Source: Macrostomum lignano
Taxonomy: Eukaryota
Length of the DNA: 64,000 nt
Direction of reading: 5' to 3'
Assembly (NCBI GenBank): GCA_002269645.1
Contig: NIVC01000282.1
Coordinates: forward strand, 124,001 to 188,000
Shown here: piece by piece, positions 581-42,900 of the stretch
How the letters are laid out: each line of letters starts with the position of its first letter
Numbering within the stretch: position 1 is the first letter of the stretch
Notes under the pieces: model-generated
Told to the model about the DNA's origin: nothing
What the model saw: the letters and a program-made list of their open reading frames with translations, nothing else
Databases searched by the model: none
Translations under genes and position numbers: made by a program

Positions 581-3259
581 ATGGCGCGGCGCAATCCAAC
601 GGTACACAGAGACATCAAAGAAACGGTCGGTACTTTCTCGATGGAGAAAGATTTTAACACATTTGTCGACCATTTTGACCTGGTATGTAGGGAATACAAC
701 CTACAAAATCCAGAGAAGGCACAGCTGCTGCCACCTCTTCTCCAAGGTACTGCGCGAGAAATTTACGGCAAGCTGGATGCGGCAACACAGCAAAATTATC
801 CAGCACTAATCATTCAACTGCGCGCGCATTTCAACCGTTGCGGCACAAACAGATCAGTGCTGCTGCACAAGTTGCATAACAGAAGGATGCAAGCAACAGA
901 ATCCTTCCTCGCCTTTGTGGACGATATCCGCCAGATAATTAAGGCACTGCATCAGCCACCGCTGCAAGCTGCGGACCAACCACCACTGGGAGCGGCAGAA
1001 TTGGCCGCCAGAGAAAGACAACGATTGATGGATCGTGAACAAAACCTCATCCTGCACGTAATAAACAACGCACAGCCGTCACTTCGGGATAGACTTTTGC
1101 GTGAAAATATCGAAACCGAAGAAGACCTTTTGCGTTGCGGAATGCAATGGGAAGCCAGTGCCCCATTAATGACGACAGGCAACAATGAAGTGCAGAAACT
1201 GACGCAGCAACTAAACAAGTTAATGCAGCACCAGACAGCTGCTATCGCCGAACAAAAAAGACGAAATGAACAAGCCTCAGCCAGATGTTACTACTGCGGA
1301 CAAGAAGGACATTATCAGATTAATTGTCCTCATTGGTCAACAAGATACGACAAGCCGCGACAGATATTCAACAATCAGAAGCCGCAGAAACCATGGCAGC
1401 ACTATCAAAATCGCCAACAACAAGGAATGAGACGCTTCGGAAATGATAGACGCTTCGGAAATAATGACCGCTCCGGAAATGATGGCCGCTTCGGAAACGA
1501 AGGCCGCTTCAGAAGTAATGGCTACAGGCCACGCAACGTCAGATACACACAAAGACAGCCGACGCAAGCAATGCCACGATACGCGAATGCCATCACGTAC
1601 ACACCGGAAAATGAACAGCAAGAACAGCAAGTGTTCACAATTGACGACTTGGAAATGGACTTCACAGTCCCGGAACTTGACATCAGCTTGATCGAAAAGA
1701 AGACGACGCACGAGGACAACACTGACAACACAGAAGAGACGAATGAAACCGAAATGATCAAATTAAAAGAGACCACCGGAGACAGCAGAGAAAACAGGAA
1801 GAAAGTAAATCACAAGACAAGGGAGGAGGCGGAGAGCGACATCGGCAACGAAGAAAAGATGAAAACCGGCGAAGAAAACAACTATGAATCGACAACAGTG
1901 GATGACGACAAAACGAGCATGAAAGACAAAGAAATGAAAGAAGAAGAAGAATGTAGAAGTTACGGCAACGACCACGACTGCGAGGTGCGTGATGACACGA
2001 ACGACTACCAAGCCGAAAGAGGAATGCAGGAAGAACCGAGAGCGGAGAATCTAAGTTCCGACAGCGATCAAGGCTACGAAATACAATGGAAAGATGAAGA
2101 AATGGAAAAAGAACAGGTGAAAGAAAAGCCGAGTTCCGACAGCGACGAATGCTACGAGATCCGATACAAACGAAATGGTGAAGCCTATATTCAAACGGTC
2201 GACTACAAGACAGAGAAAAGATACCAAACGCAATGGAGTGAAACAACGGAAACATCGGAAGAAGCCGCAGACGAAGATAATGAAATAACCAAAAAGCAAA
2301 GCGAATCAGAAGCCTTCCGCCTGGATCAGCCAATGGAACAACCGAAAGAATATGATGCGGACATGGAAGATAACGAATGGCGATCGCAGCCAATGCCAGC
2401 AAGGACAACGGCAAAATCCAAGAAGTGGAAAAACTGGCTATTCTGGATCATCGTGATACTACTGATAGCAGTAGTCGCCAAAGCAACGGCAACGGAAAAG
2501 CCAATGATTTGTCCAACGGATGCGCATATCCAACCGATGATCTACAAGATACCAACCGACATCAAATGCAGTTACTTCAAGACAAACCAGACAAAACCAA
2601 AGAAGATTACACTCGATCTCTACAAGGCTAACATCAAGAAGCATCGACAACACGGGATAGTATGCTTCAGAGACAAGCACCTGGTGGAAAAAGTTTGGCG
2701 CGGACAATGGAACCGGATCCGATTTAAACAACATGAGCTACATGTGTCGCACGCGGAATGCCTACAATGGAATCAAACACTATTTTCAAAGGATGGTGAA
2801 CTGGAACCAGATGAGAAGGTCGGCAACGCACAGCTGTTCAGAACAAAGAATTCAGCCAACGGTCGATATATTCACTTCTTCGGAAAATGGAAAGAATATA
2901 TGGCACGCAACAGCTACTTGATCAGAAATATTCCATTCTACTACAATCCGTACGAGAAAATGGAATCGTTACAGCTGCAACTAAGCGAATGTCGATACAG
3001 TGAAGGATGGTGTCCAACGCCGATTCTACGGAAGGAAGAACTACACAGTCTACCACTGAGTCCAACATATCATCAAGACTATCGATGGCAGATTGAGCAC
3101 AGAGCACAATCACACTATGAGGAACCGTACAAATCACGACAATACTTCTTCGCGTGGAAGTTGAGCCGGAAATTGACTGCAAGCTTCAAAAGTATCACAC
3201 AGTTGAAGGAGGACTACTGTCAAATACGTTTTTGGCAAAGTCAGGAGACTTGGCACTGA
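581..3259 (+). CDS. gag: Gag (capsid-like N-terminus, zinc knuckle) + acidic linker + internal signal peptide + N-terminal half of Env-like glycoprotein
   Basis: 892-aa ORF; CYYCGQEGHYQINC (CX2CX4HX4C) at 1286-1327; hydrophobic WLFWIIVILLIAVVA at 2435-2479 followed by an A-T-A signal-peptidase-type site; Cys-patterned ectodomain afterwards. Confidence 0.9.
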   Translation: MARRNPTVHRDIKETVGTFSMEKDFNTFVDHFDLVCREYNLQNPEKAQLLPPLLQGTAREIYGKLDAATQQNYPALIIQLRAHFNRCGTNRSVLLHKLHNRRMQATESFLAFVDDIRQIIKALHQPPLQAADQPPLGAAELAARERQRLMDREQNLILHVINNAQPSLRDRLLRENIETEEDLLRCGMQWEASAPLMTTGNNEVQKLTQQLNKLMQHQTAAIAEQKRRNEQASARCYYCGQEGHYQINCPHWSTRYDKPRQIFNNQKPQKPWQHYQNRQQQGMRRFGNDRRFGNNDRSGNDGRFGNEGRFRSNGYRPRNVRYTQRQPTQAMPRYANAITYTPENEQQEQQVFTIDDLEMDFTVPELDISLIEKKTTHEDNTDNTEETNETEMIKLKETTGDSRENRKKVNHKTREEAESDIGNEEKMKTGEENNYESTTVDDDKTSMKDKEMKEEEECRSYGNDHDCEVRDDTNDYQAERGMQEEPRAENLSSDSDQGYEIQWKDEEMEKEQVKEKPSSDSDECYEIRYKRNGEAYIQTVDYKTEKRYQTQWSETTETSEEAADEDNEITKKQSESEAFRLDQPMEQPKEYDADMEDNEWRSQPMPARTTAKSKKWKNWLFWIIVILLIAVVAKATATEKPMICPTDAHIQPMIYKIPTDIKCSYFKTNQTKPKKITLDLYKANIKKHRQHGIVCFRDKHLVEKVWRGQWNRIRFKQHELHVSHAECLQWNQTLFSKDGELEPDEKVGNAQLFRTKNSANGRYIHFFGKWKEYMARNSYLIRNIPFYYNPYEKMESLQLQLSECRYSEGWCPTPILRKEELHSLPLSPTYHQDYRWQIEHRAQSHYEEPYKSRQYFFAWKLSRKLTASFKSITQLKEDYCQIRFWQSQETWH

Positions 3260-6200
3260 CGTTTCAAAAGAAACCAGTCGAGCAAAAACTGAAATGCAAG
3301 GATACAGACAAGACACTATTCATCTCGGAACAAGAGATACCAGTCTACGTAAAGGATGAAGACAAACAAACCTTCTTGGCAATCATCAATGGAACGTATC
3401 AGCAACAAGAAAAACAGAATAGAAGACGACGTGACATCGAACGTCCCAAACTGGTGTCAAACCGGCTGTTGTCAGCAAAGATAACGGCTTTGGATCACAA
3501 TCTACACAACCAGTTAAACCACTTGCATCGAACACTGGTCCAGCTAACTTGCAAAATGCACGCAATCAACTTAAATTATGCCAGACAAAACTACTATGTC
3601 AACCCTACGATGACTTTTCGTAAAATCACCGGAATGACGAACGTTTTGGCAGTTCCAATATACGAGCATCTGTTGATATACAAGTGCACGCCGATACAGC
3701 ACTTTAACATCTTGCCGTCAAACACGTCAACAACCTGCTACGATAAGCCAAGGATTGAAGCGTTCTACGAAGGAAAACGAATTCAGGGATTCTTGGACAC
3801 GGTACACAACATCATCGTTGGCACCGCAATACCGAGACCTTGCACCACGGCAGTAAACTACTATCAACTGGACAATGCACTACACGTCATCAAAACAACT
3901 GGAACGACAGCAAACGTCACAGAACCGGAAGTAATCGTCGACGAAAACTACGACATGGAGGATTTGAAAATCCGATTCAACAGAACGAAGTATACGCCAT
4001 TCGCCGATATCCAACTTGACGAGATAACACCAGGATGGACGATCAACGACTTCTTGCAAGCGTTCATCACCCAACGCAAGATGATTCACCAGCTGTTCAC
4101 AAGAAAGGACAAAGGAACCGGGACAGGAAGATTTCCCGTCCTTGTTTCAATGGACAGCGCCATCAAATCATTTTGGACAAATAGCTTCTGGGAGCTGCTC
4201 AATGGAAGAGGCAGTCTCTATCAAGGATTCATCTTCTACGGTGCTTGCATTGTGTGGATTGTCACGGCAATCTTCATCATTTCATCGATCGTACGGTGCT
4301 TCAGTCAAACTTGTCCAAGAGCTAAGAAGACAGTGAATGCCATAATGCAAAGAACGACAACGGAAAGCGACAACAGTTTAGAACTAACAGAAACTGCACA
4401 TTGTGAGGTTCAAGGGCAACCGACACTAGCAACGCGGCTATATCCATCGATTCCGACAACACCAACGGCACCAAGGATACAACCACCCAACTATCAAGCA
4501 GAACAGCACGAGCCAAAATGGCCGGAAAACTACGTCTGTACGCTACACGCCGAGATTGGCAAAGCAATGGCTCAGGTCATTGTCAACAACTTGCCATGTC
4601 GAGCACTACTGGATTCAGGCAGCTCGATCACAGTCATCTCGCAACAATTATGCAACAAGCTACGACTCGCGGTACGACCAGCAGCAATCGCAGTTGCAGG
4701 AGCAGGAGGACATTCACTCAACATCCTAGGAAAAGCAGATATCGACTTGAAAATTGCTAATAAACAGCTGACGGTCCCGACGTACATCATCGACAGACTA
4801 CCAAACCAAGACGTCATCGTTGGAATCGACACGTTCAAGCAGCTTCAACTACCATTGACCTTCGACTTCAACAAGCAAACGTTTAGGATCGACACGGTGG
4901 AGCAACCGCTGATCAACCAGATTCGAGTACTACCGAAAGTAACTCTGCAGCAAGATGTCATTATCCAGCCTGAAAGCGCATGCTGGGTCAGAGCGAAAAC
5001 GACCAGCGCGGCAGATGAAGCAATGATATTTGATCCACACAGGAGAGTCACGGCAAAACATCAAATCATGATGCCTACGGCACTAGTGCTGGTTGCAAAG
5101 GATAAGCAACTGCCAGTACAAATCTTCAACCCGAACACAGAAACGGTTCATCTACGACAAGGAATGTGCATCGGTCATCTCAACACCCAAGCATCGGTTA
5201 TGCTGATTGAACAAGCGACTCCACGACTAACAGAGGAAGAATTTCAAAAGAAGATCAATTTGGATGACAGCCCGATTACGGAACAGCAAAAGAGGAAAGT
5301 TCGACAGCTGTTGTGGAAGTACAACGAAGCCTTCTGCCATCATGATTACGACATCGGACGAGCCAAGGACATCAAACAGGAAATCAAACTTCTGCCGCAC
5401 ACGGAACCAATTCAGTGCAAGCCGTACCCGATCGCCAAGCATCTGCAACAACACTTTGACGAAATCATCGATAAAATGCTAAAGCACGGCATCATCAGCA
5501 AAGCTATTTCGGCTTACTCCTCACCGTGCCTACTGGTACAGAAGAAGGAGACAAACGAAAGACGACTCGTATGCGACTTCAGACTGTTGAACAAGTACAT
5601 ACCGACGGATCAGCAAAGCCTACCGAAGATCTCCGAACTACTAGCAAAGCTCAACACGGCAAAATTGTTCACGGTGTTCGACCTACGTCATGGATTTTGG
5701 CAAATTGAAATCGAGAAAGAGTCACGACAGTACACGGCTTTCAAAACCTACAATGGACAAGTATACGAGTACAATCGATCGCCGATGGGACTTAGCAACA
5801 GCCCAGCAACGATGAGTCGACTAACAGCATACATGCTAGCAGGATGCACGAACCTGCTGCACTATGTCGACGACATTTTAGCCTACGGAGAGGATTTCGA
5901 GCGACTCTACGAAGCTACGGAGAAGGCCCTAGCGCTCATTCAACGCCAAGGTCTGAAGCTACAACCAACTAAATGCAAATTCTTCCGAGACAACGTGCGT
6001 TACCTGGGACATCAGGTGACAGCCAAAGGAATCTCACCGGACCCAGACAACGTGGAAAAGGTGAAGAAGTTTCCTACGCCAACCAGTATAACGAAGGTCC
6101 AATCATTCCTTGGACTTGCGCAATACTTCAGGAAGTTCTTACCTAACTTCGCAAAGACAGCAAAGCCACTGTACGACCTGCTCAAGTTCGACAAATGGAA

Positions 6201-8076
6201 GCAAGACAACTGGACACAGAGACAACAGGAAAGTTTCGACGAAATCAAACGACAGCTGACATCAGACGCACTGCTACAGCATCCGGACTTCGACAAGCCC
6301 TTCATCATCGAGACAGACGCCTCAGGAACGGGACTCGGAGCAGTCCTACTACAGGAAACCGAGGACAAGAAGGAACGACCTATTGCCTACGTCAGTCGAG
6401 CACTCAAACCAAATGAAACAAAGTGGTCAGCTACGGAACGAGAGCTACTAGGAGTCTTGTTCGCCCTGCGACAGTTTCATTACTACATCTATGGTTCTCC
6501 AATACAGACGATAGTACGCACGGATCATGCACCATTGACCTACGTCGTAACTACAAAAGGACAGACCAACAACCGACTCATCAGAATGACACTCAAGATC
6601 CAGGATTACAACTACAAACTCGTCTACAAACCAGGAATTACCAACAAAGCCGCGGACGCCCTGTCAAGAGCCTATGAAGTCAACGCCATTCATCCAATCC
6701 CTAACATCAAGGAGTTGGTGGATGAAACCGAGCGCGACAACTTCTACCAAGCGGTTAAAGACGACGACAAGAACATCAAACTCAGTCCCATGGAACGAAA
6801 ATTCCTACGCAAGCAACGACAACACCTAACAATCAATAAGTCACGGCTCTACTGGATGAGCGACAATAAACCCAAGATCTACATACCATATTCGTTTCGG
6901 CAAGCAATTCTCAACGAGCTACACGACAACCCACTCGCTGGACACCTGTCGGCAGCAAAGACCATCGCGAGAGTGGAACAATACTACTTTTGGCCAACTA
7001 TGTACGGCGACATCAAGCAGTATTGCAACAACTGCCATTCATGTGCTGCATCAAAGACAGGACGACGACAGAAACCGCAGCTACAGTCCATTCCGAAGTC
7101 GACTACAATGGACTGTCTAAGCATCGACATCACCGGACCGCTACCACCGAGCTGTCTCCAGGGCATCGCCTACACCTACATTCTAACCGCCTTGGATATC
7201 TTCTCGAAGTTTGCTATCGCCATACCGATACCGGACATCACAGCTCAGACAGTGGCAATGAGTTTCTTCAACGAAATCATTTGCAAGTACGGCACGCCGA
7301 AGAACCTCACATCGGACAACGGATCGCAGTTTACATCGCAACTGTTTCAGCAAGTCGTAAGGATTCTCAACATTACGCAGATCTACACATCGACCTACAA
7401 TCCGAAGGCAAACATGGTTGAACGGTTTCACCGCAACCTGCACGAGATGATTACACATTTCGCGCACCAACAGCCGGAAGACTGGATCATCTACCTGCAA
7501 TCTGTAACAATGGCCTACAACAGCGCTATTCATCGATCAACGGACAATACGCCATTCTTCCTAATGTTTGGACGAGACTTCCAACCGCCGAATCTGCTCG
7601 CACAGCAATTGCTACCATCGCAGTACGTGGAAGTACCGACTTCCATTCAGAAATTCGTCACGCAACTACACCTCGCATGGAAGATCGCCAAGCACAACAT
7701 TGACAACCAGGTGGCTCTGACCACCGGCAACGACGCGAGATCGACAACCCTGACGGCCGGCGACATCGTCTACCTACACTACCCGCCACAGCAGACGCAT
7801 AAACATGCACAGAAGTACAAAGGACCCTATCGAGTGGTCCAACTAACGTCACCAACAACGGCACGCCTGGCTAATGTACAAGATCCACATCAGCACCAGT
7901 TCTACGTACACATTCATCGACTAAAGAAGATCAACACTGACACAGCGACGTTTCTACCGACATTAGACAACGCTGATCGCACGCGTTCAACGAACCGCCA
8001 CATCGCGACGAAGCACGAGGAGACTCAAACGACAGATGTGAGCCAGCCACATGGCTACAACCTACGACCACGCTAG
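3154..8076 (+). CDS. pol: C-terminal half of Env-like glycoprotein (furin site, gB-like core, TM) fused in frame to Pol (PR, RT, RNase H, IN)
   Basis: 1640-aa ORF, frame open from 3121, no ATG start; RRRR at 3421-3432; TM at 4225-4293; protease Asp codon at 4612; YVDD at 5863-5874; IETDAS at ~6307; integrase H..H..CxxC, SIDITG, TSDNG, VERF; GPY motif; ends GYNLRPR. Confidence 0.93.
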   Translation: MEVEPEIDCKLQKYHTVEGGLLSNTFLAKSGDLALTFQKKPVEQKLKCKDTDKTLFISEQEIPVYVKDEDKQTFLAIINGTYQQQEKQNRRRRDIERPKLVSNRLLSAKITALDHNLHNQLNHLHRTLVQLTCKMHAINLNYARQNYYVNPTMTFRKITGMTNVLAVPIYEHLLIYKCTPIQHFNILPSNTSTTCYDKPRIEAFYEGKRIQGFLDTVHNIIVGTAIPRPCTTAVNYYQLDNALHVIKTTGTTANVTEPEVIVDENYDMEDLKIRFNRTKYTPFADIQLDEITPGWTINDFLQAFITQRKMIHQLFTRKDKGTGTGRFPVLVSMDSAIKSFWTNSFWELLNGRGSLYQGFIFYGACIVWIVTAIFIISSIVRCFSQTCPRAKKTVNAIMQRTTTESDNSLELTETAHCEVQGQPTLATRLYPSIPTTPTAPRIQPPNYQAEQHEPKWPENYVCTLHAEIGKAMAQVIVNNLPCRALLDSGSSITVISQQLCNKLRLAVRPAAIAVAGAGGHSLNILGKADIDLKIANKQLTVPTYIIDRLPNQDVIVGIDTFKQLQLPLTFDFNKQTFRIDTVEQPLINQIRVLPKVTLQQDVIIQPESACWVRAKTTSAADEAMIFDPHRRVTAKHQIMMPTALVLVAKDKQLPVQIFNPNTETVHLRQGMCIGHLNTQASVMLIEQATPRLTEEEFQKKINLDDSPITEQQKRKVRQLLWKYNEAFCHHDYDIGRAKDIKQEIKLLPHTEPIQCKPYPIAKHLQQHFDEIIDKMLKHGIISKAISAYSSPCLLVQKKETNERRLVCDFRLLNKYIPTDQQSLPKISELLAKLNTAKLFTVFDLRHGFWQIEIEKESRQYTAFKTYNGQVYEYNRSPMGLSNSPATMSRLTAYMLAGCTNLLHYVDDILAYGEDFERLYEATEKALALIQRQGLKLQPTKCKFFRDNVRYLGHQVTAKGISPDPDNVEKVKKFPTPTSITKVQSFLGLAQYFRKFLPNFAKTAKPLYDLLKFDKWKQDNWTQRQQESFDEIKRQLTSDALLQHPDFDKPFIIETDASGTGLGAVLLQETEDKKERPIAYVSRALKPNETKWSATERELLGVLFALRQFHYYIYGSPIQTIVRTDHAPLTYVVTTKGQTNNRLIRMTLKIQDYNYKLVYKPGITNKAADALSRAYEVNAIHPIPNIKELVDETERDNFYQAVKDDDKNIKLSPMERKFLRKQRQHLTINKSRLYWMSDNKPKIYIPYSFRQAILNELHDNPLAGHLSAAKTIARVEQYYFWPTMYGDIKQYCNNCHSCAASKTGRRQKPQLQSIPKSTTMDCLSIDITGPLPPSCLQGIAYTYILTALDIFSKFAIAIPIPDITAQTVAMSFFNEIICKYGTPKNLTSDNGSQFTSQLFQQVVRILNITQIYTSTYNPKANMVERFHRNLHEMITHFAHQQPEDWIIYLQSVTMAYNSAIHRSTDNTPFFLMFGRDFQPPNLLAQQLLPSQYVEVPTSIQKFVTQLHLAWKIAKHNIDNQVALTTGNDARSTTLTAGDIVYLHYPPQQTHKHAQKYKGPYRVVQLTSPTTARLANVQDPHQHQFYVHIHRLKKINTDTATFLPTLDNADRTRSTNRHIATKHEETQTTDVSQPHGYNLRPR

Positions 8077-8196
8077 AGTTTAGAGAACAACCCCGTGTAG
8101 TGACCGGGATAAAGAATAGCACTACAGCTTCGCAAGCTTGTCGTAAAAGGCGACTAATCCGAGCGACACAAAGACAGCGACAAATTGACGACAATT

Positions 8197-8865
8197 ATGG
8201 GCAACGCACTGTCAAAACAGGCGCCCCAGCCTCAGCAGCTATATGACTGCCCGATATGTTTAACTGATGACTTGGCTGTCAAGCCACCGACTATTTGCAT
8301 CAATGGACATAAAGTTTGCGGACAATGTTTAAGTGATTCACACTATATTCAGCCCTGGCAGAGTTGTCCCCTCTGTAGAGATAGTTTGCGACAATGTGCC
8401 TATTGTTATTCTTGGCGCACGTTTCAATATTGTAACCACCAACATTTTATTTGCATGCACTGTTTGAAGCAAACCGCTAGTAGGGGCATTATAGGATGCC
8501 CCTTATGTAACAGTATGCCCCGCGAAAACACTTTTAAGAAATGGTGTCGGATTATACCTGACCCAGCGCGTTGTTTATCCGTTTACACTATGCACACCTT
8601 AACCGCTATGAGTATCGAACGGCGGCTGGAGTTTTGGCCTGTACCTCGCTTCGTTCAGCGGTCGCGACGACAGCTACTATTATATGCTCATAGAAATCAA
8701 GGATTTTTGCGTCATATGTCACCCTTGGAGATTGAGCGACGGTTGCGGCAGTTTTTGCATGACCACGAATCATTTCACTGGACGCTACACGTATACTGCC
8801 ACGCGCTTAAACGATTAGTGCTCTCACGTAGCTATTTTATTTGGCTTTTTAGGTCTCACCGATAG
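8197..8865 (+). CDS. Accessory ORF3 of the retroelement: double RING-like zinc-finger protein with N-myristoylation motif
   Basis: ATG at 8197 (track starts at TTG 8185); MGNALSK; CPIC..C..GH.VC..C..CPLC then CAYC..C.H.H..C..C..CPLC; lies between the pol stop and the PPT. Confidence 0.8.
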   Translation: MGNALSKQAPQPQQLYDCPICLTDDLAVKPPTICINGHKVCGQCLSDSHYIQPWQSCPLCRDSLRQCAYCYSWRTFQYCNHQHFICMHCLKQTASRGIIGCPLCNSMPRENTFKKWCRIIPDPARCLSVYTMHTLTAMSIERRLEFWPVPRFVQRSRRQLLLYAHRNQGFLRHMSPLEIERRLRQFLHDHESFHWTLHVYCHALKRLVLSRSYFIWLFRSHR

Positions 8866-8935
8866 AACATATGCTTGTTACGTATCTTGAATAATCCTCA
8901 ATCGTTCTAACTATACCTATACCTATCGCCCACAG

Positions 8936-9568
8936 ATGACCGAGATGGATACCTGCCCCTGCTGCCTCGAGGCACGGGAGCCGATGCTCCCGACTTGTGA
9001 ATGGGGGCACCAGGTGTGCTTCCCCTGCGACGAGCGGGCGCGAGAAATTGGCGACGTGACGATCCTTACCGCCTGCCCCGTCTGTCGCAGACCGCGGGTC
9101 CAATGTGCCCTTTGCGGCGACCAGCCCAATGTACGACTCTGTTCAAATCGGCATTGGGTGTGTTTCAGCTGTCTTCAGCGGTACGGTGCACGAGACATCA
9201 TGACGTGCACCGTGTGCCTGGCTCCGCTGTCCAACACAGCATCCGTACTACTGGCACCGATGCTCGCCGTACCGGAGCTAACGCTGGCGGAGCCGGATGA
9301 GCTAACCCTGGAACAGCTGGCCGTCGCCGTACGAACGTGGCCATGGCCGCTTCAGCATCAGGCCGACTGGCGGTGGTTACTAGACATCGCCAGGACTATG
9401 GTGCGTACAGCAGAACCGCTTACGACCATAGAGGCCTATCTGCTTTTGCTGGAGCGGACCGAGGATCCGCGATTCACTAAGTTTCAGTCGCTGTACTGGG
9501 CAGTGGCATCCCTGGTGGCGCGAACCACGCATCAGGTGAGCAGCCTGCTCAGGACAAGCTTCGGCTGA
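8936..9568 (+). CDS. Accessory ORF4 of the retroelement: double RING-like zinc-finger protein, paralogous to ORF3
   Basis: 210 aa; CPCC..C..GH.VC..C..CPVC then CALC..C..RH.VC..C..CTVC; Cys/His spacing nearly identical to ORF3. Confidence 0.8.
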   Translation: MTEMDTCPCCLEAREPMLPTCEWGHQVCFPCDERAREIGDVTILTACPVCRRPRVQCALCGDQPNVRLCSNRHWVCFSCLQRYGARDIMTCTVCLAPLSNTASVLLAPMLAVPELTLAEPDELTLEQLAVAVRTWPWPLQHQADWRWLLDIARTMVRTAEPLTTIEAYLLLLERTEDPRFTKFQSLYWAVASLVARTTHQVSSLLRTSFG

Positions 9569-9795
9569 ATGCCTCGGCAGCAGCGCGAGGACAGCAGGTA
9601 TCCCCGGCAGAAGACATGATTAACTTTAACTGAGCGTGGACTCAACACCACTAACCTTTATTAACACACAATGTATATTACGTGCATATATGTTAATAAA
9701 GAGAATTATGTAACCAATTTAAAGTTAAAGTATGGAATAATTCAATTACCCAAGATTTTTATTTCATTGTTAAAACTCGGGACGAGTTTTTTCGT

Positions 9796-9807
9796 AAAAA
9801 AGGGAGA
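9796..9807 (+). other. Polypurine tract (plus-strand primer)
   Basis: AAAAAAGGGAGA ending 3 nt before the TGT start of the LTR, preceded by a CTCGGGACGAG motif often seen upstream of gypsy PPTs. Confidence 0.85.
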
Positions 9808-9810
9808 TTT

Positions 9811-10671
9811 TGTAGAGTGTTCTACCTCCCGTTAAAAAAGGAAAAAAGAAGATAATCGTATAATACTACTATAAGTAAGTAAGTACACGCATGTGCGCCT
9901 AAGCTTTGAATGAATCACGCTACCAGAAAAAGATGTTACCAGAATAATACGCCATGAGCCATTTTCCCCTTTTAGCGCAACACGTGAATTGTCATGATAC
10001 TATTTTGGATCAAAAACTTGTCTATAAATACAAGCGATCTGAAGCGGTACCGGAGCCATTCTCCCCACGGAAGAGGAGCGCTCCGAAGAGGAAGCCTTAG
10101 GAGGACTTCCTGATCTACCAAGTCAATCGAGACTCGGTCGAGTTGTTGCGGTAAGCCTTCCTTATTTGCGCCCGTTGTGTTAGAGACGTCTCGCTCAAGT
10201 CTATTGAGACTTGAGTCTAATTGAGTCTGTTGAGACTCTTGAGTCTGTTTAGACTCCATTGGTTGCAGTCTCCAGAAGGACTGCCCTTGATAGATCTTAG
10301 AGGACTATCAGTGGTTTCCGGAGCTATACCTAGAGTGCATAGAGGCACTGCTAGAAGAAGGAGGCTTAATTTAGACCGCAGTTTGGCGCAGGGTACCCAT
10401 TGTTGCTACGAGGCCTCTGATTGGTCCTGACGGAAGATACCGGCCGGAAGAACTTATCGGAAGTACAAGAGGAACCAGGACCAGAGCAACTGAAGAATCA
10501 AGGCGCCTGATCTACGAGATCTACTGACAAGTTCCTAGCGAGAACTACTCAAGAAATTCAAATCCGGATTAAAGGTAATTGAATACCTTCGTTTGACTTA
10601 CTGGGTTGCCTAGCTGTTGAGCTAGAAGTGATTGTTCCTTGATTATCGAAAGTCGGGTAATAAGGAACACA
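9811..10671 (+). repeat. 3' LTR (~861 bp)
   Basis: Starts TGTAGAG next to the PPT and ends ...GGAACACA where unrelated repeat sequence resumes; TATA at 10023; U5 hairpin at 10633-10669. The partner LTR is not in the window, so the right end is inferred. Confidence 0.75.
10023..10030 (+). promoter_or_regulatory. TATA box in LTR U3
   Basis: TATAAATA about 210 bp into the LTR. Confidence 0.6.
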
Positions 10672-10730
10672 TCAAAATGAGTGCCAGTGGCTCTAAAATG
10701 AGCGCTGACAACACCGATTCTGAAAATAAT
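10672..10730 (+). repeat. Fragment of the AAAATGAGTGCC-satellite-bearing dispersed element (target of the LTR insertion)
   Basis: AAAATGAGTGCC..AAAATGAGCGCTGACAA..GATTCTGAAAATAAT matches the array end at ~49495-49535. Confidence 0.7.
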
Positions 10731-21800: not shown

Positions 21801-24800
21801 GCAACATTATTGATTTCCATAACAGGTCACAAAAGGGGCAAAGCATTGGCATGTCCACCCATATTACTGGGGGGAGGACACGTCCCCCCCCCTCGATGGC
21901 GACGCCCCTGGTGTGTATGAGTGCGTGCTGTGAACAGTAATGGGGCGCTTGTGTGTACTGTGCCAGGGTACCTGGAATATAATTTTATTAATATAGCTCC
22001 TAGACTTTTCTTTTAGCATCGAGGTCTATTTTAATAGACCTCGATGTGCTATTCTGATGGGACAAAAAGGGCCAAATAAGGTTTAAAAAGCTCTATTGAG
22101 GTTATATGAGGTCAGCTGAAATCTACTACCAAAATTTAGCAACTCTTTAGGGTAGCGCAATAGACTCACGGGTTCCTTCTTGATGTCTTTGTCCAGGTCG
22201 AGCCTGGTCAGACTCTTATTAACGCTAAGCGCCAATTTAAGCGCCATGAGACCGGCAGTTCGAATCTGATTGTCGCGCAGGTCCAGCCTGAGCAGCTGGG
22301 GACTCTCGGCCAGGCATTCGGCCAAGGCTACAGCGCCTTCGCAAGCGATTCGGCACCATTGGAGGCCGAGTCTAAGCAGAGTTCGATTACGTAATAGGCC
22401 TTCGCGCAGCAGGTGGACGCCCTCGCTGCCAATCAGATTGTGCCCGAGGTTCAACGTTTGCAGATGCCGATTGACGGCTAGGGCGGCGGACACCGCCGGC
22501 ATGGCCTCGTGGCTGATCTGGTTGTGCCACAGCACCAGCGCGGCCAGGCCGCACTCGCCGCCCTGCTGTTCGTACAGGCCCTCGCAGATGTACGCGCAGC
22601 CAGTGTCCTGCCCGAGGGGGTTAAATGAAGGTCAAATAAAACGCCCAAATGAAGGTCAAATAAATGTCAGATAGAATCTATAAGGGTCGCTATGACAACA
22701 CGAGTATAGAATAGCGATGCAAGTTAAGCAAAGTTGGCTGCGGTTAGTACTTAGTACAAAGCTGAATGGGGCAGCTCAAATCAAAACTCGGGCTTGAACA
22801 CAGATACTAGAATATAACTAGATGGGCCACGCAGCAAATTTATACGCGCAAGCTACTTTCAGATCAGTAGTAAGTTAAACTGAAGCATTTTAATGTATTT
22901 TTAAAGACAGAGGCGTATTTATTGGCTTTTAACCCCCCCCCCCTGCCCCGCCACCCAATGTTTATTGCCTTCCCGGTTTTTTCCAGCCATGTACATTTCA
23001 GTGGACTGGCCAATGTACATCATGACTGAACCAATTAGCAAGCTGTTTACGCCTGTAAGCTTGGCCTCTAAACTTATCAAAGTCATTCAAGCGCACCTGC
23101 AGAGCATTGTTCCGCACGTCCAGCATCTGCAGAGTTGGCGTGTTTCTCAACAAGCTGGCCAGGTGCTGGCCATCGCTGCTGGTCATCTTGTTGTCGGCCA
23201 ACAGCAGCTCGCGAAGGCTCTCGTTGATGCGTAGGGCCGTTACTGAGGAGGATAGGTTGGCATAGATATTTATTAATATATTCAGAGGTCAACTCAGTAC
23301 ACAAACTTAAGAAAATCTAGGGATCATATAAGGATCATAACGATTAACGAAGGACGATATAAATATAGAAGGCCGAGAAACGTTTGTTTGGTAGAAAACA
23401 TTTGAAGGCTGGTTCTATGCTAAAAATAAACTATTGATTAAAATAAAAAATATTTTCATCGGGGGGCCGTTGTCCAGTGGTCTGGGGCAACGCTCAGATA
23501 TGCCAGCGGCCCAGGCCCGATTCCCAGAGCAGTCACATTAATTTGAGGCTAAATTGGAATCTCGACTTGGCTCTGCTCGTGCAATTAACGACCTTGAAAG
23601 CCAACCCCCAAGGCACAGTGAAGTGTACATGCCTAACGATAAATAAAGTTAGGGCCGCTGTACACTCCTGTGTGGGTCGCCATCATAAACCCGAAATATC
23701 ACAAACCCGAAATATCACAAACCCGAAATACCATAACTTCGAAAACCAAAATAGTGTTTGACATTGCTAGAACTTTCGGAGTTATGATATTTCGGGTTTG
23801 TGATGGAAAGCGCTTTTCAGAGTTGTGATTTTTCGGTTTTGTGATGCCCCCCTCCTGTGTGAGTGTGTGCCTGTGCGAATGACTGCGTACGTATCCGCGC
23901 GCTTGTGTGCCTGCTCAGGGGAGTCGGCGGAATGGGCAGCAATGCCTCTCGCCGGTTGTGTGACAATGTCGCCTGAAGTGCGCTCTAGCCGAACTTCGAA
24001 TCTCTCATTTGGACACACCTGTAGAATGCGATACCATAAAACAAATAAAATAAATGACCCAGCAACCAACCGAGTATGAGTAGATTCCGGCCAGTAATAT
24101 TCGAATGCTCCAAATGCAGCGTAACCAAAGTGGAGCCAATCCGAAGCGACCGAACCAGGGCCGGGATGCTCTGCTCGGACAGCGGGATGCCGTGCAAATC
24201 AATGGTCTGCAGGCACGGAGTTTTCTTCAACATTCTCGAGCACATCTGCCAGCCGCGCAGTCCGATTCTAGTGTTGTGCGCGATGTTGAGCTTGCAGCAG
24301 GACTCGTAGTACTCGATCATGTCGAACAGGGCGATGGCGCTGTCTTCGTCGAGGCCGCTGCTTTCAAAGTCCAGCGTTTTAAACTGAACCCGTTTAAAAA
24401 TCTCTTCCAGGGCTTCGACCTGCCGGCTGTCTAGCCGGAGATTGCGACAGCTCAGCATCTCGTAGCGATCGTTGCAGACGCTCAGGTCGATGCCCTGCAG
24501 CTGCTCAAGCAGGTGCCGGTGCGGCTGAACTCCGTTGGCGTCGCAGGCAGCCTTGTAGGCGCACACCAGCTCCTCCGTAGTGCAATTGTAGCCTGCAATG
24601 CCCAGCATGCTTATATTATGAATAATCAATATTTAGCTGGTGTCTTCATTTACCTGTCCTTCTTAACCCGTGTCTCACTTCCTCTACCCTTCTCAACCAG
24701 TGTCTCACTTCCTCTACCCTTCTCAACGGGTGTTTCACTTCTTTTACCCTTCTCAACCGGTGTCTCACTTCCTCTACCCTTCTCAACCAGTGTCTCACTT

Positions 24801-31158: not shown

Positions 31159-33047
31159 TAAAACATATTTGTTAGGTCATTAGACAAATAACAATTACCT
31201 TAGATTAAAGCTTAATAAAGCCTAAATGCCAAATCTTATAATTATCCCTATTAAAAAAAGTTGTTAAATAGTAGATAGCTAGACTATCTGGTGCATTTTC
31301 AAAATGACCTTGCAATATAGCACAAGCACATTTTCAGTGAGATAAGGGGCCTAGCATTTGGTGCAGCACACTCATACATGCGCAACCTCCAAAATTTGGT
31401 CAGCCATGCAACTTAGTTTTAACAAAAATGTGACATAGTTTTTGGCCATAAATGCCACTTACATGAAAAAAGACCCTAATGCAAAATTAACGCAACTTTG
31501 GGTAAATGGCAGGAGTAACTATGATTGTCTTATTAAGTCAAAATGCCTCATCAGCTACTTAGTACTACTACTTTAGTTTTTTGGGTGGGAATTTTTGCGA
31601 CTTCCTTGGTTGGCCACCAAATCGGTCAGCAGGATCGGCCGACTCAGCCAACTGTTGTATATGTATGAGCACACTGCAATATAACATTTGGTATAGTGCT
31701 TGGAATCCATGTCAAAATGAGCATGTTGTTATTTTTATTCATCTATTTCATAAAATAGATGAAATATCAAAAGTTGAGAAAGTTATTAAGCATGTTTTGC
31801 ATAACACTATAACAATATTGTTTTGTTAGCAATGTCAGAGCAATGTAGAGTGCTAAAAAGGTCTTTTATTATTTTAATTGCAGGAAGGTCCTTTATTGTT
31901 ACAATGTCACAAGTCATAGGCCTAGTGCACTCTTTGTGACCCCTTGATATGGCCTATGTACCTTGGAGAGTAACCCCTTAGCTTGTTTTTATTTTTTACT
32001 AGACTTTTGATGTGTTTACAAATTTTCTAAATTTATTCCAATAGAGATGGTTATTAAATAAAGCTAGGAAAGTAGACAATAATTAACCATAGGCCCCTAT
32101 TATATTTAATTGCTATTATCATAGATAGCATCTGGCATAGATTGGCCTCTGGTAATGCAAGAACAATTTAGTAAGACATTTGATGCAGTTATTATTAAAT
32201 AACTATATAAAGACAACAAAACATTTTTTAAAAAACTTGCAGTATGATTTTGCTAAGGAGCTAGCCCTTTTAGGCCTCCCAACTGGCTGGGCCACGCCAA
32301 GGTTTAAGTTCCTTGATTTCTGCATCATCTGCCCCATTGGCTATAATTAAGATAGTTAGGCCTCATATTTATAGCTAGGTTTATTTATTTTTAGCCATAA
32401 AAGGCTTAGATAGGCCTAGACTATCTTGGAGTTGTGACAGGCCATAGTTTTAAATATATGAAGTCTAATAAGTCTATATTGGAATAAAAAGTGGCTTTGA
32501 AAAATTTATATTAGTATTAAATAATATAATAGTATGCTAATTTTTATTTTATTTTATTTTATTGACATATATGCTATGTCAAGCAATTGCTAAAGTCAAG
32601 ATCAAAATAATAAATAAATAAAATTAAATAATTTCCTATTAAAATTGCTACTTTTTATATAATAAGGTATAAAAGTTTTTTATATTAAGAAAGGTTTAAA
32701 AAATTATAAACCATTTTTAACAAACAAAAATAGAGATAATTAGGGACTTAACCTAAGTTTTTTGCCAAATCTAGCTTCCTGGTGTCACTGTCAGCAGAAT
32801 GACATTATTTGTGTACATAGGTTACTAGGGGGGCTCCACTTTATGAGCTTATGCTGACTGGCCCTTTCATGCTGACTTTACTAGAACTTTTATGGCTAAT
32901 TCTATATAGCTAAATCAGTGCTTAATTGTAAATCTCATGCATTCTCATGCTAGGCAGTGTTCTCAGCTGCACTGGTGACGACTCAAATAACCTCAAGGCT
33001 GCTTGGCACAATACACTAATAATAAGTGTCACTTATCCTATTGAGGC

Positions 33048-33803
33048 ATGACCACTCGCATAGCAGCTGTTGCCAATGCTGCCTATCAATTATTTTCGTC
33101 CGTCACTGAGCAGGGCGCGTCAAGCGTCAGCAAGGACGGCCTCGCCCGCCTGCTGCAGCTGCTGTCGAATGTCGGCACCAAGGATGTGGACTTTGACACC
33201 CGCCTCGTCACGGACGCCAGTGGCACTCACTCGCCGCCTGTGCTCTATCTGCACATAGTTGAGAATGCCGCACTGTCTATGGGCATATTTGTTCTGCGCC
33301 CCGGCGCCCGGATCCCGCTGCACGATCATCCGGACATGTTCGGCCTGTGCCGCCTCATCCACGGCAGTCTGCGCTGTCGCGCCTATTCGCCAGCCTCCGC
33401 CTCGGCCGCCGCAGCCGCCAAAGCCGCTCTGGCCGCTCGTCTGTTGCCTCGATGGCAGCTGCCCGAGCTGACTGCCGTCACCCTGTCTACTGACGGCGTG
33501 TTCACCTCTGCCTCACAGCCGCTCCTGCTGACCCCGTCTGAGGGCGGCTATCACGAGCTGCAGGCACTGGGCGACGGAGCGGCTTTTATTGACATCCTGG
33601 CGCCGCCGTACGATCACGACTTGGGCCAGCGGGTCTGCCGCTACTACCGGGAAGTGGCCCTGCCTAACAGCGAGGAACAGAATCGGCAGCATCTGTCAGC
33701 TGATGACGAGCAACAGTCTAAGCACGTCTACCTGCTAGAAATTCCCCAACCCAGGGACTTCGTCTGTGGCACCGTTGACTATACGGGTCCTAAAGTCACC
33801 TGA
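33048..33803 (+). CDS. ADO: 2-aminoethanethiol (cysteamine) dioxygenase, PCO/ADO family, single coding exon
   Basis: 251 aa; cupin motif IPLHDHPDMFGLCRLIHG and AAFIDILAPPYD. Confidence 0.9.
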   Translation: MTTRIAAVANAAYQLFSSVTEQGASSVSKDGLARLLQLLSNVGTKDVDFDTRLVTDASGTHSPPVLYLHIVENAALSMGIFVLRPGARIPLHDHPDMFGLCRLIHGSLRCRAYSPASASAAAAAKAALAARLLPRWQLPELTAVTLSTDGVFTSASQPLLLTPSEGGYHELQALGDGAAFIDILAPPYDHDLGQRVCRYYREVALPNSEEQNRQHLSADDEQQSKHVYLLEIPQPRDFVCGTVDYTGPKVT

Positions 33804-39998: not shown

Positions 39999-42900
39999 AT
40001 GAACGACTCTAAGGTTCAGGTAGGCATTAAGAAGGTGCCGTTGCACCTGCAGTCCGCACAGAATCGATTGCTAATCAAAGGAGGCCGAATCGTCAACGAC
40101 GACGGCGTACTCGATGCCGATGTGTACATTGAGGATGGCCTCATCAAGCAGGTCGGCTGCGGCCTCATGACACCTGGCGGCGTGCGGGTCATCGACGCTG
40201 CTGGCATGCTGGTGATGCCAGGCAAGTTCGGCTTGGCCTCATCACTTATGGCATGTCTGACCCACTCTGCCAATCTGACTCAATTCTCCTTCTAGACTAT
40301 CCTGACCAATCTCACGCTACCCTGACCCATCTCGGGCTATCCTGACCCATCTCGGACTGTCCTGACCCACCCATCGCAGGCTATCCTGACCCATCTCGGG
40401 CTATCCTGACCCATCTCGGACTGTCCTGACCCACCCATCGCAGGCTACCCTGACCCATCTCGGGCTATCCTGACCCATCTCGGACTGTCCTGACACACCC
40501 ATCGCAGGCTATCCTGACCCATCTCGGACTGTCCTGACCCACCCATCGCAGGCTATCCTGACCCATCTTGGACTGTCCTGACCCACCCATCGCAGGCTAT
40601 CCTGACCCATCTCAGGCTATCCTGACCCATCTTAGACTACTCTGACCTATCTCAGGCTATCCTGACCCATCCTAGGCTACCCTGACCCATCTCCGGCTAC
40701 CCTGACCCATCTCGGGCTATCCTGACCCATCTCGGACTGTCCTGACCAACCCATCGCAGGCTATCTTGACCCATCTCGGACTGTCCTGACCAACCCATCG
40801 CAGGCTATCCTGACCCATCTCACGCTATCCTGACCCATATCAGGCTATCCTGACCCATCGCAGGCTATCCTGACCCATATCAGGGTACCCTGAACCATCT
40901 CAGGCTACCCTGACCCATCTCAGGCTATCCTGACCCATCTCAGGCTCTCGGGCTATCCTGACCCATCTCAGGCTCTCGGGCTATCCTGACCCATCTCGGG
41001 CTCTCGGGCTATCCTGGCCTATCTTAACTATCCTTACCTACTCGCTGCAGGCGGCATAGACGCGCACACCCGCTTTCAAATGCCGTTTATGGACATCCAA
41101 TCGGCCGATGATTTCTACACCGGAACCCGAGCCGCTCTGGCCGGCGGCACAACCACCGTGATCGACACCGTAGCCTGCGAGCGCGACGCCTCCATGGTGG
41201 ACTGGTTCAATCGCTACCGGGCCTGGGCTGACGAAAAGGCCTGCTGCGACTACGGCCTGCGCGTGGTTGTGCCGCAGTGGTCCGGCCAGAAGACCGCCGA
41301 CGAGATGGCCGCCCTGGTGAAAGAGCACGGCATCAATGCTTTCCACTGCCACATGTCGTATCCGGGCGTCTGGCTGCTAGAAGACGACGAATTGTTGAGC
41401 GTCTTCCAGACCTGCCGCAGGCTGGGCGCTCTTGCCCAGGTGCACGCCGAGAATGGCAAGGTGAGGGAGATTATAAGCGATAGACATGTGTAAATAATTA
41501 ATGGACAGGTGTACATAAGCGATAGACATGTGTAAATAATTGATGGACAGGTGTACATAAGCGATAGACATGTGTAAATAATTGATGGACAGGTGTACAT
41601 AAGCGACAGACAGGTGTAAATAATTGATGGACAGGTGTACATAAGCGATAGACATGTGTAAATAATTGATGGACAGGTGTACATAAGCGACAGACAGGTG
41701 TAAATAATTGATGGACAGGTGTACATAAGCGATAGACTGGCGTACATAATTAGTCAACGGACAAGGGTAGACCGGGGTATTAAGGGTCGAGATTATGACA
41801 GGTGCAGGCCGCTGTCAGGTGCAGGCATCTGTATGCATCAGACAGGTGCAGGCATACAAATCAGACAGGTGCAGGCATACAGATCAGACAGGTGCAGGCA
41901 TACAGATCAGACAGGTGCAGGCATACAGATCAGACAGGTGCAGGCATACAGATCAGACAGGTGCAGGCATACAGATCAGACAGGTGCAGGCATACAGATC
42001 AGGCAGGTGCAGGCATGCAGATCAGGCAGGTGCAGGCATACAGATCAGACAGGTGCAGGCATACAGATCAGACAGGTGCAGGCATACAGATCAGACAGGT
42101 GCAGGCATACAGATCAGACAGGTGCAGGCATACAAATCAGACAGGTGCAGGCATACAGATCAGACCAGTTAACACAACACTGCACGCAGGTAATCGAGCG
42201 CAAAGCTGACCAGCTGATGTCGCAGGGCATCTACGGTCCTGAGGGCCATGCCTATTCCCGGCCGGAGCGAATGGAAGTTGAAGCCACTGTACGCGCCCTG
42301 TGCATAGCCGATGCAGCTAATTGTCCGCTCTACGTGCTGCCCGTGACCAGCCCTGAAGCTGCCGACGCCATCGCTTGCGCTAGGCGAACCACCGGGCAGG
42401 CCTGCTTCGGCGAGGTCAGCCCGGCCGCTCTGGCCTGCGACGATTCCGTCTATCAGGTAAGATTGAGCCAATGCGCCCGGCCAAAACCCGTTGAAAGCGT
42501 TACCGTGACAAGAATCGCTAAAAATTCATTGCAAACAACTCATTACCGACTCTTGTGACTCTTTAACGACTCAGACGCGCGACAGAGAGGCGACTGGTGC
42601 GTTGTAGAATCGTAAAAAGAGTCGCGAAAAAGTGTCGTTGTATTGTTGGCGCCTAACTTTGGCTAGAGATGTGACTCTAATTCATCAAGCAACGTAGATG
42701 CGCTTCACACACAACTAAAGTGATTCTGCAGCGAATCTAGACCGTCTCAAACACGACTCTAAGGCCTCAGAGCGAGTCTAAGTCTTGACTCTTAGGCGAC
42801 TCTTTGACGACTTTTTGGAGACTTGTTTTCATCAAGAAAGACCCAGCACGCAGTCTCGTGTTAGATGTGTTCTCAGTCTGTCAGGAATTCATGCTGCTGA

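Follow-up and report, generated by a model that had tools for sequence, protein, structure and literature searches.

Two double-RING genes downstream of integrase in an env-bearing errantivirus of the flatworm Macrostomum lignano

What are the two genes that fill the space separating pol from the 3' LTR of a Macrostomum lignano retroelement, the slot in which retroviral env usually lies, and what would the element gain from them? The window analysed here is a stretch of 64,000 nucleotides (contig NIVC01000282.1, positions 124,001 to 188,000); positions given below are those of the window, and all features of the element lie on its forward (+) strand. The original prediction for this locus, made from the letters of the DNA, had described two paralogous double-RING genes in the position of env and had proposed that they act as anti-silencing or anti-restriction factors or as ubiquitin helpers of budding.

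The element and its two double-RING genes

The element has paired TG...CA LTRs, a PBS, a polypurine tract (PPT; 9796-9807) and a 4-bp target duplication (10675-10678), as expected of a Ty3/gypsy element (Metaviridae), and its full length is 11,674 nt. The 864-bp 3' LTR (9811-10674), with a TATA box at 10023 and a splice donor GGTAAGC cut after its first G (between 10150 and 10151), shows 100% identity with the 5' LTR immediately upstream of the window (L021:4001-4864). The gag frame (581-3259) contains a CCHC knuckle (Pfam zf-CCHC at residues 236-251), an acidic spacer, the first hydrophobic helix and the N-terminal part of an env-like glycoprotein, while pol (4561-8076, stop at 8076) encodes protease, RT, RNase H and integrase in the Ty3/gypsy order (PR-RT-RH-IN). 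The spacer (1600-2400), which separates the CCHC knuckle from the first hydrophobic env helix, is long, acidic and of low complexity.

The glycoprotein (about 2420-4300) is encoded after gag and before protease, in frame with both, and has a signal or transmembrane segment (hydrophobic helix at 2438), a furin-like site (RRRR at 3421) and a C-terminal transmembrane helix (4225). In the window copy the gag-env frame is interrupted by a frameshift near 3150-3170 that is private to this copy. A programmed frameshift was rejected because the break is not common to related copies, and single frames of 2,461-2,538 codons were found at 11 of the 150 listed RT matches (all at least 81% identical). The glycoprotein would be of the gB (class III) type by the published typing of this family, whose env is given as ENV_HSV (HSV/gB type) in the available text of PMC13524379, with Pfam support below the cut-off (Monjiviricetes_fusion in two related copies, E 5.9e-5 and 1.1e-5). 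No match to the env-like region was found among PDB sequences. By its sequence organisation and identical LTRs, the element is a young Ty3/gypsy errantivirus that carries an env-like gene.

Much of the remaining window (11035-64000) is taken up by dense minisatellite arrays with units of ~10-30 nt. Three sets of host exons, which by eye we take to encode a leucine-rich-repeat protein (22086-24632, - strand), a cysteamine dioxygenase (33045-33800, +) and a dihydropyrimidinase (40990-41490, +), are not RING-related, and no perfect heat-shock element pattern was found anywhere in the window.

Two ATG-started ORFs were confirmed between the pol stop and the PPT and 3' LTR, namely ORF A (8197-8865, 222 aa) and ORF B (8936-9568, 210 aa). 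Each contains the two back-to-back RING-like modules that had been predicted, in the form of a C3HC4 pair joined by a 5-residue linker (A: RING1 8248-8379, RING2 8395-8508; B: RING1 8954-9088, RING2 9104-9217), followed by a helical domain with a conserved WP. All eight C3HC4 zinc ligands are present at RING spacing in each module. The first loop of RING2, at 8-9 residues, is at or slightly below the usual RING minimum of 9. Two ORFs of at least 200 aa occurred in 0 of 500 shuffles of 8077-9810, and residue shuffling produced a single RING pattern once in 20,000 trials for A and in 0 of 20,000 for B. Pfam matches were below the curated cut-offs for both A (zf-RING_2, E 1.7e-4; Sina_RING, 1.8e-3) and B (Sina_RING, E 2.5e-4); the Sina_RING scores of 18.8 and 21.6 bits do not reach the SINA/SIAH threshold (29.3), and Sina_RING was matched at E<=0.01 in 18 of 22 family members. 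No Pfam match to the SIAH zinc fingers or the TRAF-like substrate-binding domain was found in the A/B family.

A retrieves B at E 1.4e-9, with 30% identity across residues 9-165, and the C-terminal profiles of the A-type and non-A-type proteins align by HHalign with a probability of 94% (E 8.9e-8). Since A finds B and the C-terminal halves are homologous independently, the two are true paralogues, and the predicted paralogy was found to hold outside the RINGs too. The RING1 and RING2 profiles also match each other (95.5%).

The claim that these genes occupy the position of env stood in part: they do lie in the usual env slot, but an env-like gene is already present upstream in the element. Neither A nor B has a signal peptide, a TM anchor or a glycoprotein ectodomain; no TM peak (hydropathy maxima 0.74 and 1.58) and no late motif were found in either. 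Replacement of env by the RING genes was rejected, because a glycoprotein is encoded between gag and protease, and the RING genes are therefore extra rather than env stand-ins. The A protein of the window begins with a myristoylation-like MGxxxS, which is confined to the window lineage. As this start occurs in only 3 of 7 aligned A-type genome ORFs, and in no non-A ORF, myristoylation was rejected as a family-wide trait.

Both AlphaFold models are confident (pLDDT 92.9 for B and 89.9 for A) and helical beyond residue ~100, in agreement with the predicted helical C-terminal region. A RING fold is present in the model of B, where residues 1-66 align to the TRIM69, TRAF and RNF146 RINGs (Z 5.1-5.3, rmsd 2.6-3.0) and residues 52-105 to Lassa Z and to the RING of RNF213 (Z 4.8); for RING2 against Lassa Z, the values of 4.7-4.8 are no higher than background. 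A profile search of PDB sequences was topped by RING E3s (RING1B-BMI1 chimera, TRIM21, TRIM5, SIAH1). The best Foldseek match was the RING1B-BMI1 fusion, whose overall geometry is unlike (TM 0.25), and nothing was found at E<=0.001 in PDB and BFVD; matches in BFVD were to single RINGs (best E 0.011), none of them full-length. Candidate folds of the helical domain, which reached Z 5.8 at best for B and 6.4 for A (the latter being the ATP synthase delta/OSCP N-terminal domain), lay within the helical-bundle background and were not accepted. As modelled, this domain has no convincing known fold and may represent a new substrate-recognition fold.

Beyond the genome, the protein search matched 8 of 1.84 billion representatives: a Macrostomum lignano gene model (UniRef A0A1I8G201) that is nearly identical to B, four Logan proteins (29-39% identity, all with both RINGs and three of them with the WP helical domain as well) and three RING proteins of generic type. 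A word-index protein search gave no match with A or with the family alignment at near length, and only the M. lignano gene model at longer length. In the ESM Atlas, B matched just generic viral RING clusters, under 0.9, and its C-terminal part matched nothing.

Distribution, selection and loss of the cassette

With 150 candidates scored, a genome search gave at least 151 matches for A and at least 151 for B, both lower bounds. The cassette was found after integrase in every examined sub-lineage with an RT protein 80-100% identical, with two to three tandem paralogues per element (mostly A and one B-type; three genes in one sub-lineage). The five paralogue types share 20-37% identity, and in the tree the A-types stand apart from four non-A types, although several deep forks are weak and long branches were flagged. 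Presence in related families, a check put forward with the original prediction, thus extends to all sub-lineages with RT of at least 80% identity but not to the six loci examined from more distant families (RT 35-42%; two env-bearing), at each of which no RING match was found within 10 kb. A distant env-bearing family has another post-integrase ORF, of 164 aa and non-RING (L064:5041-5535).

No RING gene of the host was found nearby. Among seven loci without nearby pol or with doubtful context, six keep a PPT and LTR and one is a frameshifted fragment, and three outside homologues used as queries led back to the same element loci (150 candidates scored each). The outcome that would have spoken against the original prediction, a neighbouring host gene captured only once, was not observed; the context is that of the element in all sub-lineages examined.

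Same-strand nests with many family copies and fragments (L042-L048, G000:C2121:1-70000) are rich in full and in diverged cassettes, and similar nests were observed on C87, C1130, C272, C4009 and C1405; they may reflect either an insertion preference or a piRNA-cluster-like trap. A multi-copy derivative without PR, RT and most of IN has both RING ORFs open (L026 and L027, with similar matches on C1192, C2828, C2869 and C352). It is the mirror image of the cassette-less copies described below and might serve as a source of product in trans.

Codon models fitted to full-length, non-identical representatives gave an omega of 0.149 for nine A-type ORFs and 0.150 for 12 non-A ORFs, and omega=1 was rejected for both (2dlnL 365 and 540, respectively). 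Pairwise NG86 values were 0.12-0.28 in 11 of 15 pairs, the other four being saturated, and were alike in the RINGs and the helical domain; the other genes gave lower values (RT and IN 0.007-0.036, gag 0.045, env 0.08-0.09). The A/B cassette is under purifying selection, with none of the drift towards a dN/dS of 1 that decay would bring, and its faster evolution relative to pol and env fits a host-facing protein. Together with the element context, the omega of 0.15 supports the predicted accessory-gene role.

Two truncated classes were found among the matches listed: 26 matches have A cut after ~113-144 codons and no B (class 1), and 22 have A stopped after ~70 codons and no B (class 2). The class 1 copies compared have gag-pol DNA 100% identical to the window, the class 2 copies compared have an RT 93.5% identical to it, and the A remnants of the two classes differ. 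This divergence and the unlike remnants indicate at least two independent losses of the cassette. LTR pairs are 99.2-100% identical in full and truncated classes alike (17 elements), and env is open in several truncated copies.

Outside three nested contigs, full cassettes number four of the window type and four of a second type; two of the four window-type cassettes have flanks in common and probably represent a single insertion. The 13 loci that hold both genes have A at full length in 10 cases and B at full length from the ATG in five, and some of the breaks in A/B copies may be assembly errors. The redundant M. lignano assembly inflates copy counts, as described in the available text of PMC12801592. 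Young cassette-less copies outnumber full ones among the matches listed, and most dispersed young copies are without B and with a truncated A, a point beyond the original prediction. Since the truncated copies are equally young and more numerous, the cassette is not needed in cis for transposition. A cassette that is selected over the long term yet dispensable in cis fits a trans-acting product, or one needed only at times, for example when a new host lineage is invaded.

Expression signals and ligase potential

Of 34 distinct LTRs, 27 carry the donor GGTAAGC at 108-127 nt past the TATA box, and a putative splice acceptor precedes each of the two ORFs. Ahead of A-type ORFs there is a conserved non-coding block (8092-8157; acceptor AG at 8126-8127) with an invariant YACAG in 8 of 8, and its 65 nt show 94-96% identity between lineages with 72-73% identity in RT DNA. 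Three hairpins are predicted in the block, with 12 pairs kept in 8 of 8 and no covariation, and Rfam gave no matches across 8050-10700; the block may act as a signal for splicing, packaging or translation. A branch-point-like CTAAC followed by CAG (8907-8935) immediately precedes the ATG of B. Of 20 distinct non-A starts, 12 have a CAG that abuts the ATG, and an AG occurs two bases earlier in further types.

In the UniRef gene model A0A1I8G201, itself a prediction, an LTR exon runs directly into B-type ATGs. In a single contig of run X5, taken as RNA by guess, 10150 is joined to a downstream LTR segment, which has an AG before it in 37 of 37 LTR matches, and from this joint the LTR donor appears to be used. 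An apparent GT-AG intron within the LTR (10151-10436) agrees with the joint in this contig. No junction from the LTR donor to A or B was found in the reads and contigs listed, where A and B are covered by X1, X5 and X7 contigs. The conserved splice signals point to subgenomic mRNAs for A and B.

All 16 zinc ligands are invariant among 22 sequences at identities down to 20%, and the WP of the helical domain is nearly so. In RING1, the linchpin Arg and the Pro after Cys7 were found in all 22 sequences, I/V before Cys2 in 18 (Cys in the other four) and L after Cys2 in 18. RING2 has a linchpin R in none and a K in one of the 22, and L after Cys2 in none. The linchpin positions donor ubiquitin in RING E3s, and RINGs without it can be pseudoligases that are paired with active RINGs, as set out in the available texts of PMC12326332 and PMC11992055, respectively. 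The retained E2-face residues and linchpin support RING1 as a putative active E3 module, while RING2 looks non-catalytic from its missing linchpin and E2-face residues. The E3 ligase claim of the original prediction is thus favoured by RING1 but not by RING2. For a complex between A (residues 12-112) and a UBE2D-like E2 of the host, structure prediction gave a score of 0.03, which speaks neither for nor against binding.

A proposed trans-acting accessory ligase and its alternatives

The reading that we favour, with a probability of roughly 0.55, is that A and B are trans-acting accessory E3 ligases of an env-bearing errantivirus, aimed at a host factor and exploited by truncated copies as free-riders. 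One ancestral double-RING gene gave rise to A and B by tandem duplication, an origin shown by their homology and by the two to three paralogues per element. Subgenomic mRNAs would be formed by splicing of the LTR donor to the acceptor ahead of each ORF. RING1 would then recruit host E2~ubiquitin, RING2 as a non-catalytic partner would select the substrate together with the novel helical domain, and each paralogue would mark a separate host protein. By analogy, the targets would most likely be restriction, silencing or stress/apoptosis factors, a guess drawn from the faster evolution, the duplication, the dispensability in cis and the likeness to viral RING ligases. As the copy classes suggest, the product would work in trans, so that cassette-less copies transpose as free-riders while selection maintains the cassette over the long term.

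A bolder form of this proposal is one that we hold only tentatively. Here an enveloped element would encode its own single-chain ligases, each with an active RING, a silent RING and a new substrate-binding domain, expressed like the accessory genes of complex retroviruses. At least five paralogue types would degrade different host defence proteins (e.g., piRNA-pathway or stem-cell apoptosis factors), and the product would be a public good for cheater copies of at least two independent origins.

A and B might instead bind zinc without being catalytic and regulate the element's own cycle (export of genomic RNA, or control of RT or assembly), in the manner of Cer1 CERV or arenavirus Z, a reading that we consider unlikely. 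CERV has the same genomic slot and spliced expression (available text of PMC10309623), and Cer1 is reported as sister to a flatworm gB-type errantivirus (available text of PMC13524379). The MGxxxS start in the window lineage recalls the myristoylated RING protein Z, to which RING2 aligns at the background level given above; however, this start is limited to a few A-type ORFs, the linchpin Arg and E2-face residues of RING1 are kept throughout, and five paralogue types at such low identity are hardly expected of a core-cycle factor.

It is doubtful, and somewhat more so, that the genes are ubiquitin helpers of ESCRT budding, by which Gag or the env tail would be ubiquitinated at the membrane. 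ESCRT use is plausible for an env-bearing element with P[TS]AP past the env transmembrane helix, and possible myristoylation of A would place it at the membrane. PTAP and PPxY late-domain-like motifs lie between the env transmembrane helix and protease (4462-4494); 10 of 11 elements have P[TS]AP past the helix, among them two cassette-less ones from distant families, and the four window-clade copies have PPxY. This placement suggests that ESCRT is recruited by the env tail and not by Gag. A budding role for A/B is less needed because P[TS]AP lies in the predicted cytosolic env tail. The element's own motifs include PPxY, which would recruit host Nedd4-type ligases; the two distant env-bearing families keep PSAP with no RING match in 10 kb, env is still open in several truncated-class copies, and A and B have neither a late motif nor a TM helix. 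This part of the original prediction is weakened, with P[TS]AP in the polyprotein and none in A or B.

Comparably doubtful is a role as ligases against retroelement proteins, in which turnover of Gag or Env would serve self-limitation or the exclusion of competitors. That cassette-less copies outnumber full ones would be expected if carriers were restrained, and full cassettes do accumulate in same-strand nests. On the other hand, restraint in trans would strike the truncated copies as well, and long maintenance in mobile lineages requires a benefit to the element. Finally, an ancient host origin is likely because RING1 resembles the SINA/SIAH RINGs, and many copies have decayed, but a captured host gene that hitch-hikes without function, or a domesticated one, is very improbable and largely refuted by the omega of 0.15, the intronless ORFs, the PPT and LTR at six of the seven pol-less loci checked and the return of the outside homologues to element loci.

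If the accessory-ligase reading is true, the substrates of element-encoded E3s would reveal the hosts' retrotransposon restrictors in flatworm stem cells. Active counter-defence genes are familiar in viruses and have rarely been shown for animal LTR elements, and the natural full and truncated classes offer a ready test of public-good dynamics between transposon copies. RNAi is usable in the M. lignano stem-cell model. Transgenesis of this flatworm is also in use (available text of PMC12801592).

Compared with known systems, the element family is known and the RING accessory gene family is apparently undescribed. Flatworm GAG-ENV-POL elements with an HSV/gB-type env have been reported, as far as the available text and supplement 1 of PMC13524379 describe them. 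Among them is Mlig_errantivirus_2 (Platyhelminthes_Rhabditophora), from the same species, which has an 864-nt LTR and a 12-nt PBS in common with the window element; the published copy is 10,591 nt long against 11,674 nt here, a size that matches the truncated class. RING, ubiquitin, zinc and accessory have no mention in the available main text of that paper, and neither RING nor ubiquitin in that of PMC12801592, the expression table of which holds 150 RING annotations. In the planarian giant gypsy Burro/GYPSM1, likewise a flatworm gypsy with an in-frame env between gag and pol, the available text of PMC6431247 describes ubiquitin- or apoptosis-linked domains (MATH, BIR, SUMO-like, BCL2-like). 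These lie mostly within a ~5,000-aa polyprotein, however, and no post-integrase tandem C3HC4 RING ORFs are described there.

Cer1 CERV, according to the available text of PMC10309623, is like A/B a non-env, cysteine-containing product encoded after pol and before the 3' LTR, from a spliced mRNA, but it is the product of a single gene, has a four-cysteine loop, is non-RING and is required for RNA export. The non-env ORF3s of bdelloid LTR elements, also in the env slot, are accessory ORFs acquired by capture that have come and gone from family to family; they differ in encoding GDSL esterases, DEDDy exonucleases, and TM or coiled-coil proteins, and the available text of PMC5408684 has no mention of RING or ubiquitin. 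The available part of PMC6338049 adds no precedent. Virus-encoded RINGs are found in herpesvirus ICP0, the RING E3s of large DNA viruses and arenavirus Z, to which the structural matches are of single RINGs only. Retroviral accessory proteins hijack host ligases and, to our knowledge, do not encode a RING. In the literature covered (open journals, outside Repbase and an earlier classification of M. lignano LTR elements to which PMC12801592 refers), no RING ORFs were found described in any LTR element. The closest likenesses are to cellular ligases: RING1 shares its spacing and E2-face residues with SINA/SIAH and other C3HC4 RING E3s, and RING1B-BMI1 has the active-plus-silent RING pairing proposed for A and B. 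Unlike in these systems, the two RINGs of A and B stand 5 residues apart in one chain and are followed by a helical domain.
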